DNA of 64,000 nt from an uncultured Ectothiorhodospiraceae bacterium (GCA_964445325.1 CAYUKN010000002.1:10794-74793), one strand, 5' to 3'. Counted from the stretch's first letter, positions 36,996-40,496 are shown. Notes: generated by a model not told the origin, from the sequence alone. Program-made: numbers and translations.

Positions 36996-39900
36996 TCAGG
37001 CGCGTTCGCGCTGGCCCGCCTGGGCCTCGCGCGCCAGCACGTGATCGAGCCAGAGCGAGCTCAGCCGATCCGGCAAGCGGTTCTGCTGCTGACGTGCCGC
37101 GAGGTTGTCCAAGTCGATCCACGCCAGCGGCTGGTCCTGCTCGGCGCAGGAGAACACCGCGCGCGTGCGCTGGCCCGTCTCCGGATCCTTCTGCCACTGC
37201 AAGCACTGCGCGCACACGCCCTTGAGCATGCACTGCATCGGGCTGCCGACCGTGCCCAACGCCCGGACGTCGCTGGCGAAATACGGGCTCAACCGCCCGC
37301 CGGCCAGGCCCTCCTGGAAGCCACGCAGCAGTCCCGTGCCACCCATCACGAGCACCCGGTCGACATCGGCCAGGCGCAGTCCGTCGCTCGGCCCCACGGT
37401 CCCGTCGCCATAGCGGCGCACCAGATCGACCATGTCGGTGTCGACGACGCTCGTATCCTGCGGGCGCCGGGGCTCGATCATCGGCTCGCGAGCGGTGGCC
37501 CAGATGATCTGATCGGCCGCGCCCTCGAGCTCGTCTTGTTTGTCCACCTCGCCCGGTCCACCGAACGCCGCGACGTACAACACCCGATTGCCGGCGGCTC
37601 GGAGCGCCGCACCGATGTCGAGCATCACGGCTGCACCCCAGCGCCCGGCGACCACCATGACGGTCTCGCCCTCGGGGATCTCGGTGGGCTTGCCCGTCGG
37701 GCCCATCAACACCACGGGATCGCCCGCTTGCAGGCGCCCGACCAAGCGCGGGCCGGCCCCCCACTGCAGCACCATCAACCGAATCATGTCGCCGTGCACG
37801 CCCGTCCCGGAGACGGTGAGCTGGGGCACCTGCAGGCGCGTACCCTCGATCACCGGCGACAGCGACTCGAACGTCTGCAGCCGATAGAACTGCCCCGCAC
37901 GGAAATTGCGCGCGGCCATGGGCGCGCGCACCCACACCTCGGCGATCGCGGGATTGCTGGCGTCGACCGAGACCACGGTGGCGTCGAAGCGATCGCTGAT
38001 ATCGTCGAGGAAGGCGCGGCACGTCGCCGCGCTCGTGTCGCGCTCGCTGGGGCCACGCGCCAGGCTCTCCAGGATCTCGGGGTAGCTGCGGAACGACGAG
38101 GCGATCGCCTTGACCACACTGCCATGGAAGGCCGGATGGGTATCACCCAGGAAGCTCACCAAGTGGCCGAAGTGGTTGTACGAGGTGAAGGGCCCGAACG
38201 CGGGCGACTTGGCGTGCTCGGGCCGATCCACCGGCTGCAGCCCCTCGGGTGGATCGACGTGGGGGCGGAAATACTCGCCGTCGTGAGCAAACGTGCCGGG
38301 ATACTCGCGCTCGTAGATCGTGTTGGGCACGGTCCCGGCCGCGACGAACACGGCACGTGCGTCCAGATGGAACTCCTGGTCGAGCGACAGCCACCGCCCG
38401 CCGTGGTGCTCGCGGCGGCGACACAGCACGGACTGGACGTGGCCGTTGTCACCGATCACGCAATGGATGGGCTCGACGCCCTCGAGGTAGTAGATGCCCT
38501 CCTCGGTCGCCTTGCTGACCTCCTCGTGGTTGCGGGTATACGCCGGCGAGTCGTTGAGCCCCTTGCGGTAGGCGATGGTGACACCGCCCCAGCGCCGGAT
38601 CAGTGAGCCGAAGTCGGGCGTCTCTCCCAGGGCGGCGGCCCGGGCGCGTTCGTCGCGCACGGCACGGCCATGGGCGAGGAACTCGTCCAAAATGCCCTGA
38701 TCCTCCTCGCCCAGGACGTCGCGAACGCCCGCCTCGCCGCCCTCGGCAACCATGGCCTCATAGCGCTTCACGGTCTTCTCGACCTGCTTGATGTAGTAGG
38801 CCTGCACCTCGGTGGCGGTGTCGACACCGGTGAGGCCGCCGCCGATGACGACCGCGGGCAGGCGCACCTGGAGGTTGGCGAGGCTGGTCTCCTTGCCTGC
38901 GCCGGTGAGCTGAAGGGCCATCAGGAAGTCGCTGGCCTGGCGCATGCCGCGGGCCAGCGTGTTGCCCATATTGATCACGCGCGGCAGGCCCGTACCGGTG
39001 GCGATGCACACGTGGTCGAAACCGAGATCCCAGGCGTCCTCGAGACACACCGTGCCGCCCAGGCGCACCCCGCCGTGGACACGGAAGTTGGGGCGCCGCG
39101 CCAGGGTGAGATAGATCAGCTTGAGGAAATTCTTGTCCCAACGGACGGTGATGCCGTACTCGGCGACCCCGCCGAAGCCGAGCAGGATGCGCTCGTCGAG
39201 GGGCTCCTCCAGGGACTCCCAGTCGCGCACGGGCTGGTCGATGAGCTCGCGCGGCAGCGGCTCGATCTTGAGACCATCGACACCCACGACGGCACAGCCG
39301 GCCATGGTCAGATGGTGGGCCATGGTGAAGCCGGCCGGCCCCATCCCCGCGATCATCACCCGGCGCCCGTTGTAGGGCTGCAGCACGTACTGCTCGCGGC
39401 GCAGTGGATTCCAGCGGGTGAGCAGGTCGTAGAGCTCAACCCCGTACGGCAGCCGCAACACGTCGGTCAATGTACCGGTCTCGATCTGCGGGATATTGAC
39501 CGGATCCTGCTTTTGGTAGATGCACGCCTTCATGCAGTCGTTGCAGATCCGGTGGCCCGTCGCCGGCACCATCGGGTTGTCGACCATGGCCACCGCCAGC
39601 GCCGCTACCGGATAGCCGTCGCGGCGGAACACGTGCATCTCGGAGATCTTCTCCTCGAGCGGGCAGCCGGTCAGCGTGTTGCCCAAGGGGTCGACCTTGA
39701 GCCCCAGCTCGGGCTGCTTCTTCTTCTCGGGGAAGCCCTTCGAGCAGAAGTCGCCGTCGTGCTCGTGGCAATAGATGCAGTAGTTGACCTCGCCCTGGAT
39801 GCGGCGCATCCCCCAGCGCGTATCGGTGAGCTTGAAGCCGTCGCGCCGGCGGTGGCGCTCGGGCGCCCCCTGCAGCCGCCCGACCGGATCGCCGTTCACG

Positions 39901-40496
39901 GGCTGCAACTGCACCAGCGCGGCGTGGTCGACCTTTTGCGGCGTGACGAACGCCGTCCACCCCGCCACCGCCCGACGCCCCTCGTCGGTACGTTGCGCCA
40001 GGGCACACCAGTGGGTGATGCCCTCGATCGCCTGCGCATGGCGCTCGGGATCGCGCAACAAGCCCACGGCCCAGGAAGCCACGGCGGCCTCGCGGTCGGC
40101 ACCGGGCTCGATCTGGCGCTCGAGCCAGTCGTCGAGCTCGGCGAACGACTGCTCGGGGTCGCCGCGCAGCTTGCGGCAGCGCTTGAGCACGAATTCGTTC
40201 TTGAAGCGCAGGACCGGATCCTCGCCCAGGATGTCGGCGCGCAGCGCCTCGAGGCTGTCCTCGATGCCGTACAAGCGCGCGGCAAAGCGCTCGACCCAGG
40301 GCCCGAGCTCGATGAGCAACGCGGACAGCTCGCGCGGTCCCAGCTCGGCGCCGTCGCGGTAATCGCCCAGGCGGGCATCCAGTGCGGGATCGTGCTCGTT
40401 GAGCCACGCGCGGAAGCGCGCATCGAGACGAGCCAGGCCGTCCGGCGTCTGCAATTCGGCGAAGCCGAAGTCGTCGAGCATCGGTGTCACTGCCAT
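36996..40496 (-). CDS. Large FAD/Fe-S oxidoreductase: GltD/NfnB-like module fused to FNR/PyrK/NfnA-like module
   Basis: YCIYCHE..FC, GCPLEE, TGHRICNDCMKAC (Fer4_20-type); GMGPAG and VIGGGLTGVD; C-terminal FAD-binding part with SPMQCMLKGVCAQC...FSC. Confidence 0.88.
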   Translation of the reverse strand: MAVTPMLDDFGFAELQTPDGLARLDARFRAWLNEHDPALDARLGDYRDGAELGPRELSALLIELGPWVERFAARLYGIEDSLEALRADILGEDPVLRFKNEFVLKRCRKLRGDPEQSFAELDDWLERQIEPGADREAAVASWAVGLLRDPERHAQAIEGITHWCALAQRTDEGRRAVAGWTAFVTPQKVDHAALVQLQPVNGDPVGRLQGAPERHRRRDGFKLTDTRWGMRRIQGEVNYCIYCHEHDGDFCSKGFPEKKKQPELGLKVDPLGNTLTGCPLEEKISEMHVFRRDGYPVAALAVAMVDNPMVPATGHRICNDCMKACIYQKQDPVNIPQIETGTLTDVLRLPYGVELYDLLTRWNPLRREQYVLQPYNGRRVMIAGMGPAGFTMAHHLTMAGCAVVGVDGLKIEPLPRELIDQPVRDWESLEEPLDERILLGFGGVAEYGITVRWDKNFLKLIYLTLARRPNFRVHGGVRLGGTVCLEDAWDLGFDHVCIATGTGLPRVINMGNTLARGMRQASDFLMALQLTGAGKETSLANLQVRLPAVVIGGGLTGVDTATEVQAYYIKQVEKTVKRYEAMVAEGGEAGVRDVLGEEDQGILDEFLAHGRAVRDERARAAALGETPDFGSLIRRWGGVTIAYRKGLNDSPAYTRNHEEVSKATEEGIYYLEGVEPIHCVIGDNGHVQSVLCRRREHHGGRWLSLDQEFHLDARAVFVAAGTVPNTIYEREYPGTFAHDGEYFRPHVDPPEGLQPVDRPEHAKSPAFGPFTSYNHFGHLVSFLGDTHPAFHGSVVKAIASSFRSYPEILESLARGPSERDTSAATCRAFLDDISDRFDATVVSVDASNPAIAEVWVRAPMAARNFRAGQFYRLQTFESLSPVIEGTRLQVPQLTVSGTGVHGDMIRLMVLQWGAGPRLVGRLQAGDPVVLMGPTGKPTEIPEGETVMVVAGRWGAAVMLDIGAALRAAGNRVLYVAAFGGPGEVDKQDELEGAADQIIWATAREPMIEPRRPQDTSVVDTDMVDLVRRYGDGTVGPSDGLRLADVDRVLVMGGTGLLRGFQEGLAGGRLSPYFASDVRALGTVGSPMQCMLKGVCAQCLQWQKDPETGQRTRAVFSCAEQDQPLAWIDLDNLAARQQQNRLPDRLSSLWLDHVLAREAQAGQRERA

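Follow-up and report, generated by a model that had tools for sequence, protein, structure and literature searches.

This study concerns a flavoprotein gene on the minus strand (36996..40496) of a 64,000-nucleotide stretch of DNA from an uncultured Ectothiorhodospiraceae bacterium (GCA_964445325.1 CAYUKN010000002.1:10794-74793); the whole of this stretch is referred to below as the window. Judged by its sequence and by structure prediction, the encoded protein is a redox enzyme on a single chain, with the design of the two-subunit NfnAB and Xfn enzymes and, in addition, a family-specific helical N-terminal domain. We consider it reasonably probable that it works as a soluble, self-contained ferredoxin(-type) oxidoreductase which depends on reduced nicotinamide adenine dinucleotide phosphate (NADPH) and is wired like Nfn/Xfn. 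The minimal activity to which we commit ourselves is that of a predicted NADPH:ferredoxin(-like) oxidoreductase. An earlier note on this DNA, made from the sequence alone, had described a single chain in which an NfnB/GltD module is joined to an NfnA/PyrK-like one, with an extra N-terminal domain of ~200 amino acids. The fusion is borne out by sequence and fold matches to NfnI and Xfn of Pyrococcus furiosus and to NfnAB of Thermotoga maritima. The gene and the parts of its product are the following (FAD, flavin adenine dinucleotide):

36996..40496, minus strand: complete coding sequence of a free-standing gene, 1166 amino acids plus stop codon, ATG start (open reading frame list, translation, homologues)
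39882..40496, minus strand: family-specific all-helical N-terminal domain, residues 1-205 (AlphaFold helices; PF27156 RP005_N in close homologues)
39402..39881, minus strand: NfnB/GltD-type Fe-S region, residues 206-365 (conservation in 74 members; profile alignment to NfnI-L)
38097..39401, minus strand: FAD and NADPH Rossmann domains, residues 366-800 (Pfam Pyr_redox_2, PDB alignments, motifs)
37983..38096, minus strand: helical inter-module linker, residues 801-838 (AlphaFold secondary structure)
37251..37982, minus strand: NfnA/PyrK-type FNR-like module, residues 839-1082 (profile matches, Foldseek)
37113..37250, minus strand: putative [2Fe-2S] site, residues 1083-1128 (C1089-x5-C1095-x2-C1098-x18-C1117)
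36999..37112, minus strand: poorly conserved C-terminal helices, residues 1129-1166 (AlphaFold; helices 1129-1138 and 1140-1165)

The minus-strand open reading frame (ORF) is the longest in its region and is intact. Its guanine plus cytosine (GC) content at third codon positions (GC3) is 0.90, level with that of the other real genes in the window, which has ~69% GC. In a search of 5.8 billion proteins, thousands of full-length homologues were found with E = 0 and up to 93% identity; this is far beyond chance, so the gene is real, and the coordinates given in the earlier note are exact. The best 120 of these thousands of relatives share 63-93% identity with the window protein at 93-100% query coverage. 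Halofilum ochraceum is the closest named species among the matches listed (74% identity), and further matches are found in Ectothiorhodospiraceae, Nitrococcus, Nitrosococcus, Spiribacter and Acidithiobacillus. Two long plus-strand ORFs overlap the gene (36402-38606 and 38670-40586); they are taken to be high-GC shadows, because all homology evidence supports the minus-strand frame only. The exact sequence is present only in DNA metagenomes (sediment and hypersaline lake), and no RNA runs holding it were found. A promoter and terminator scan of 36700-41600 gave nothing exceeding shuffled expectation, and an Rfam scan of the window gave a single tRNA, located elsewhere, and nothing at the flavoprotein gene.

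Conservation was assessed in an alignment of 74 full-length members with 44-74% identity to the window protein, which include Gammaproteobacteria, Myxococcota, Acidobacteriota, Nitrospirota and others. The Fe-S region starts at the invariant segment R218-D-G-F-x-L-T-D225, and eight of its residues are at least 97% conserved: C240, C243, C251, C278, C318, C321, C325 and E339. Based on this pattern, we propose the seven cysteines and the glutamate as ligands for two [4Fe-4S] clusters. In a profile alignment to NfnI-L of P. furiosus, C278 corresponds to C56, C318/C321/C325 to C101/C107/C111 and E339 to Glu126. The latter is the site-differentiated non-cysteine ligand of the flavin-proximal [4Fe-4S] cluster of NfnI-L (Huang et al. 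2025, PMC12221290). The loops of the region have a low predicted local distance difference test score (pLDDT), as expected for cofactor sites modelled without cofactor. The region had been described as a cysteine-rich Fer4_20 domain; the seven conserved cysteines agree with this, whereas Fer4_20 itself is not called on the window protein by local Pfam at E <= 0.1. The GltD-type models of NCBIfam align to residues 270-403.

The sole local Pfam call is Pyr_redox_2 (residues 379-566). The two dinucleotide-binding motifs that had been noticed in the sequence are the FAD motif GMGPAG (384-389) and a second Rossmann motif, GGGLT (552-556); both are at least 97% conserved, as is Y643-R644-K645. This last motif, YR[KR] in the family, is aligned with Y323-R324-R325 of NfnI-L, of which R325 touches NADP(H) (PMC12221290). 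The region of residues 366-800 aligns to NfnI-L, Xfn-L and T. maritima NfnB, and its NADPH domain holds a helical insertion of ~80 residues (~555-635), with helices at 555-586 and 597-623 in the AlphaFold model. The elements of an NfnB-type module are thus present (the motifs, and the ligands of two [4Fe-4S] clusters including the glutamate) and aligned to NfnI-L, and cofactor binding is predicted. The earlier note had named unconserved cluster ligands or FAD contacts as grounds for giving up its proposal; the ligands and the FAD and NADPH motifs of this half proved to be conserved.

The linker is among the least conserved stretches, with a mean column conservation of 0.35 for residues 811-840, and the same value is found from residue 1141 onward. 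Between them lies the FNR-like module, with the FAD motif T886-R-L-Q-V-P-Q-L-T-V-S-G897 and a non-canonical nucleotide motif, A950-G-R-W-G-A-A956. A profile of residues 839-1082 matches NfnI-S (E 2e-19), T. maritima NfnA (2e-17) and Xfn-S (1.6e-8), and PyrK and hydrogenase gamma subunits rank behind these Nfn/Xfn small subunits. The Foldseek alignment to the 279-residue NfnI-S chain (5jca_S) has 332 columns and a template modelling (TM) score of 0.81 normalised to the target, and therefore most of that subunit is covered. The module had been said to end in CxxxxxCxxC...C, and this pattern is indeed invariant: C1089, C1095, C1098 and C1117 are all at least 97% conserved. Residues 1083-1128 have no meaningful sequence match to solved PDB chains, either as a single sequence or as a profile. 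Of an NfnA-type module with FAD and [2Fe-2S], the fold, the sequence of the N-terminal two thirds and four invariant cysteines are seen; the cysteine region lacks a sequence match.

The N-terminal domain extends from residue 1 to ~205 and is all-helical, as a confident model shows: the AlphaFold helices cover residues 12-176 with a pLDDT of ~90, and a model of the domain alone has a pLDDT of 81. A Foldseek search of this model against the PDB gave no significant match (best E 0.83, TM 0.18-0.25); the top rows were helical bundles of Bcl-xL, which we regard as spurious, none being under E 0.8. No NCBIfam model was matched when the domain was searched alone. PF27156 (RP005_N) is precomputed on homologues with 63-93% identity and full coverage, and the N-terminus of the window protein aligns along its whole length to such PF27156-carrying homologues, through which the assignment is made. 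In a search of 1.84 billion representatives, the domain is confined to the N-terminus of proteins of this family and is carried by 688 representatives (50% clustering); six short matches were inspected and are mostly fragments which continue into the cysteine region. The domain is without catalytic signature. That it might be a docking or regulatory surface is pure inference.

The AlphaFold model of the whole protein has a mean pLDDT of 77 and a predicted TM score (pTM) of 0.80. In a Foldseek search with this model, the top ranks (TM to target) are NfnI-S (0.81), NfnI-L (0.73), Xfn-L (0.71) and T. maritima NfnA and NfnB (0.79 and 0.72). The nearest solved structures by sequence and predicted fold are those of P. 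furiosus NfnI and Xfn (NfnII) and of T. maritima NfnAB.

There is also a difference in conservation between the two halves. Conservation is highest in the NfnB-like half (mean column conservation 0.7-0.86), where the ligands and the two nucleotide motifs hardly vary; in the looser NfnA-like half it is 0.5-0.7, with four invariant cysteines and a variable glycine-rich nucleotide motif. At this motif the canonical GGGLGNA is found in 37 of the 74 members (Myxococcota, Acidobacteriota, Methylococcaceae, Nitrospirota), AG[R/S/Q]WGAA in the window's clade (Ectothiorhodospiraceae, Acidithiobacillus, Arenicellales and others) and GNQxSxA in Legionellales-like members. At the same position, NfnI-S and T. 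maritima NfnA have GGGVG(V/I)A and Xfn-S has GAYTG. The motifs of the FNR-like module co-vary (equivalents of 950-956 and 886-899): GGGLGNA is found with ...MEGLALTGAW, and AG[R/S/Q]WGAA with ...QVPxLTVSG. As read from the alignment, the motifs near the second flavin and the nucleotide site thus change together, the NfnB-like half being invariant.

These differences bear on the possibility that the protein is a true single-chain Nfn, i.e. a flavin-based bifurcating transhydrogenase in which ferredoxin and NAD+ are reduced simultaneously at the expense of NADPH, or which runs in the opposite direction. All the cofactor modules for this are present, the sequence and the fold are both matched best by NfnI and T. 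maritima NfnAB, the glutamate ligand of the proximal cluster is conserved, and half of the family has the canonical GGGLGNA in the NfnA-like half. However, the motif in the window's clade is AGRWGAA, and Xfn, which has an occluded NAD(H) site and no Nfn reaction, is likewise without the canonical motif. The NfnA-like half is also markedly less conserved than the NfnB-like half, and architecture alone is no predictor of bifurcation, as the 2019 review itself states (Liang et al.). We hold a true Nfn to be unlikely here: the clade-specific remodelling of the second nucleotide site, as seen in the sequences, argues against a plain Nfn transhydrogenase. The suggestion of a fused Nfn-like transhydrogenase thus stands as to its set of modules and is weakened, for this clade, as to its reaction, by the AGRWGAA motif and by the example of Xfn, which has GAYTG and whose reaction is not that of Nfn.

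For the NADPH-dependent ferredoxin oxidoreductase that we prefer, the route of the electrons would be as follows. NADPH would reduce the FAD of the NfnB-like half, and single electrons would exit via the two [4Fe-4S] clusters to a ferredoxin- or flavodoxin-type acceptor, or to an Fe-S partner whose gene lies at another place. As in Nfn, there would be a second branch, of higher potential, made up of the [2Fe-2S] cluster and the other FAD. In the window's clade the partner of this branch is more likely not NAD(H), because the nucleotide motif is remodelled to AGRWGAA, or the branch may be a dead end or regulatory, as in P. furiosus Xfn/NfnII. By sequence and by analogy, the second branch in this clade probably does without classical NAD(H) use, and an Xfn-like enzyme fits better than an Nfn transhydrogenase.

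Several points weigh against this reading. The remodelled glycine motif is no proof of lost nucleotide binding; within the window's clade R952 and W953 are conserved too, and this could indicate a changed site, not a lost one. Since half of the family keeps GGGLGNA, use of a second pyridine nucleotide may well be ancestral. The C-terminal cluster is a putative [2Fe-2S] by its cysteine pattern and fold, from which its type is derived because it has no sequence match to solved chains. Searches of the literature and of sequence runs turned up no member with biochemical, genetic or expression data.

A wider reading joins the oxidoreductase to bifurcation. The RP005 enzymes would be single-chain NADPH bifurcators, an oxygen-era housekeeping source of low-potential electrons, in which one electron passes via [4Fe-4S] to ferredoxin and the other via [2Fe-2S]/FAD to a high-potential acceptor. 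Members of the GGGLGNA subfamily would use NAD+ as this acceptor, those of the AGRWGAA clade some other acceptor 'X', with RP005_N in a docking or gating role. We regard this combination as improbable; if true, flavin-based electron bifurcation would reach largely aerobic lineages, from Rickettsiales to Myxococcota.

Concerning family identity, the best NCBIfam model is PRK06567 (the Rickettsiales GltD-'UbiB' chimera), which covers residues 12-700 with 549.5 bits against a cut-off of 1072. The order that defines this family, a GltD-like module followed by an FNR-like module on one chain, is present. By these scores the window protein is a distant member of RP005/PRK06567, not an equivalog of the Rickettsiales protein; the domain RP005_N is evidently named after the Rickettsia prowazekii protein RP005. 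The family is large and catalogued, and the architecture is not new. The earlier note's idea of a new reductase cannot be kept in this respect, since the architecture is already held as NCBIfam PRK06567 and Pfam PF27156 and the Rickettsiales chimeras were described in 2013. In that work, PRK06567 GltD-UbiB chimeras are found in nearly every Rickettsiales genome (Driscoll et al. 2013). In a scan with one genome per species, at least 596 species encode a relative; these span Gammaproteobacteria, Burkholderiales, Myxococcota, Acidobacteriota, Nitrospirota, Binatia and others, mostly lineages whose cultured members are aerobic. A characterised enzyme of the same architecture, which the earlier note had named as a ground for rejection, did not turn up: in literature searches on PF27156, RP005, the annotation name, fused or aerobic Nfn and the family-bearing genera, no characterisation of any member was found.

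The gene stands alone in its surroundings. Its downstream neighbour is a convergent GAF-GGDEF-EAL gene (743 amino acids, 34756-36987, plus strand), with 8 nucleotides between the two stop codons and therefore no room for separate terminators. Upstream, after 960 bp of non-coding DNA, comes a gene in the same direction whose product belongs to the 3-hydroxyisobutyrate/tartronate-semialdehyde reductase family. No gltB or pyrD adjoins the gene, as had been noted before, its neighbours being the GGDEF-EAL and the semialdehyde reductase-family genes. The pyrD of the window (8985-10016, plus strand) is of the quinone-dependent class 2 (TIGR01036, 385 bits with a cut-off of 200), which works without PyrK; its presence is in keeping with a respiratory lifestyle. 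Neighbourhoods were compared in 81 loci, in which ORFs were called crudely, those of less than 70 amino acids were ignored, and all-against-all BLASTP was used for clustering. No gene neighbour is conserved across the 80 related loci, and no real neighbour family is found in more than five; one cluster from seven loci was discarded as an Arg/Ala-rich shadow ORF of the opposite strand. Adjacent small ferredoxins (six-frame scan for CxxCxxCxxxCP) are seen in only 2 of the 81 loci. The gene looks like that of a free-standing housekeeping enzyme, and its isolation, with neither a conserved neighbour nor a ferredoxin gene beside it, fits a self-sufficient enzyme serving diffusible partners.

The same surroundings bear on a different explanation, that the protein is the electron-input module of a catalytic subunit encoded elsewhere (cf. 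GltD/GltB, PreT/PreA and SudA/B), with the N-terminal domain for docking. GltD-like proteins are commonly NAD(P)H-dependent reductase subunits, and it is GltD-type NCBIfam models that match the central region; also, an N-terminal domain which is conserved and has neither a catalytic signature nor a fold match is compatible with a protein-protein interface. Against such a subunit speak the lack of a conserved neighbour in 80 loci from many phyla and the lack of gltB or a class-1B pyrD nearby, the window pyrD being quinone-dependent and 27 kb away. The GltD, PyrK and PreT models of NCBIfam are all far under their cut-offs on the window protein: TIGR01317 (GltD) gives 33.7 bits against 447.7, and the PRK00054 models (PyrK) give <=20 bits against 219-314. 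We give this explanation little credence.

The low GltD score also bears on the names under which relatives are held in databases, 'bifunctional glutamate synthase beta subunit / 2-polyprenylphenol hydroxylase', which would place the protein in glutamate or ubiquinone metabolism. All that speaks for them are the inherited NCBIfam and JGI names, repeated in one paper without test, a metabolic reconstruction in which the glutamate-synthase label is taken at face value. No GltB-type catalytic domain is found in the protein or adjoining it, and the best relatives are Nfn/Xfn subunits. The 'hydroxylase' label is presumably the legacy COG0543 name for FNR-like reductase domains. That the names are correct is very improbable, and as a specific function glutamate synthase/hydroxylase is effectively refuted.

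The spacer upstream of the gene (40497-41460) contains three copies of a 47-nucleotide element with paired DnaA-box-like 9-mers (TGTGGA[T/C]AA ... TGTGGA[A/G]AG), spaced by 303 and 313 nucleotides:

40613-40659, plus strand: 47-nucleotide element, first copy
40916-40962, plus strand: 47-nucleotide element, second copy
41229-41275, plus strand: 47-nucleotide element, third copy

The sequence TTATCCACA has four matches in the 64-kb window at <=1 mismatch, all of them inside this spacer. Upstream of the orthologue of Halofilum ochraceum (locus L001) there are 11 boxes in 1 kb, four of them perfect, against 0.11 per kb elsewhere. The arrangement is also present upstream of the orthologue in a related metagenome-assembled genome (L018), and it is not found in ~65 other loci. 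At the spacer the GC skew does not change sign, dnaA, dnaN and gidA are not nearby, and GATC is not enriched; a reading of the cluster as oriC was not adopted, because the skew keeps its sign. From its sequence, the spacer is a candidate DnaA-binding locus, which may be oriC-like, datA/DARS-like or a DnaA-regulated promoter. In Acidithiobacillus sulfuriphilus (L007, 2851-18327) ~9 kb separate the orthologue from position 1, where the chromosome record begins. Among upstream ORFs, with translations judged by eye, a typical gyrB N-terminus is seen in L006 and a possible recF-like product in L007. The Acidithiobacillus gene is thus near a conventional origin region too, which may be coincidence.

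Elsewhere in the window, a CHASE2-domain Ser/Thr protein kinase gene (846 amino acids, 27681-30221, minus strand) is divergent from a TRAP transporter cluster (30362-34145, plus strand) with a TAtT component, DctP, DctQ and DctM. Three plus-strand ORFs (8195-8962, 23238-24284 and 58274-59080) have gene-like GC3 values of 0.84-0.88 and no Pfam family at E <= 1e-5. The GC content dips to 0.637 at 50001-52000 and to 0.634 at 58001-60000, against ~0.69 in the rest of the window.

Enzymes of the Nfn type are commonly seen as belonging to strict anaerobes, and only one aerobe with an Nfn homologue was known to the 2019 review (Liang et al.). In the RP005 family all cofactor sites of Nfn are brought together on a single chain, and at least 596 species of largely aerobic lineages encode a relative; its reported, nearly universal retention in Rickettsiales despite extreme gene loss implies an important role. 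From one characterised member it could be learnt whether ferredoxin-type carriers are reduced in aerobes by a route like that of Nfn or Xfn, and such work would replace the misleading 'glutamate synthase beta / 2-polyprenylphenol hydroxylase' annotation. The window gene itself is an ordinary member of the family; its interest lies in a conserved protein, not in a novel architecture.

Compared with known systems, the window protein shares its domain order and its N-terminal domain with RP005/PRK06567 of Rickettsiales; it is ~135 residues longer than the PRK06567 model of 1031 positions and comes from a halophilic gammaproteobacterial lineage. With NfnAB (EC 1.6.1.4) it has in common NfnB-like FAD and NADPH domains, two predicted [4Fe-4S] clusters with a glutamate ligand, an NfnA-like FNR fold and a C-terminal cysteine cluster. 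It differs in being one ORF in the order B-then-A, whereas NfnAB has two subunits with nfnA upstream of nfnB, and in the addition of the N-terminal domain of ~205 amino acids, the NADPH-domain helical insertion of ~80 amino acids and the linker. In place of the canonical GGGVG-type NAD(H) motif it has AGRWGAA at 950-956, and the hosts of its family are mostly aerobic lineages. Its putative C-terminal cluster site also has four cysteines, whereas the cluster of NfnA is ligated by an aspartate and three cysteines.

Nfn homologues that consist of one chain and carry their NfnA-type domains C-terminally have been listed as the uncharacterised 'Pattern C' of Actinobacteria and of Alpha- and Gammaproteobacteria, represented by Mobiluncus curtisii (Liang, Huang and Wang 2019). 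The window protein resembles them in both of these traits; however, 'Pattern C' proteins have ~950 amino acids and are described without RP005_N, which the window protein carries. They correspond better to PRK12779, which scores just 67 bits on the window protein and is therefore a different family.

Xfn/NfnII (PDB 5VJ7) provides in its large subunit the best PDB sequence match of the window protein, and its small subunit has a similarly non-canonical motif, GAYTG where NfnI-S has GGGVG. Its NAD(H) site is occluded and, according to recent kinetics, its bifurcation is crippled; NADPH-linked ferredoxin:NADP+ oxidoreduction is the only reaction demonstrated for it, and the same reaction is catalysed by NfnB-type proteins in isolation (PMC12221290). 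Xfn differs from the window protein in that it is two-subunit, archaeal, anaerobic and without the N-terminal domain. Within these bounds, Xfn offers a functional parallel to the window's clade, in which the site may be occluded as well.

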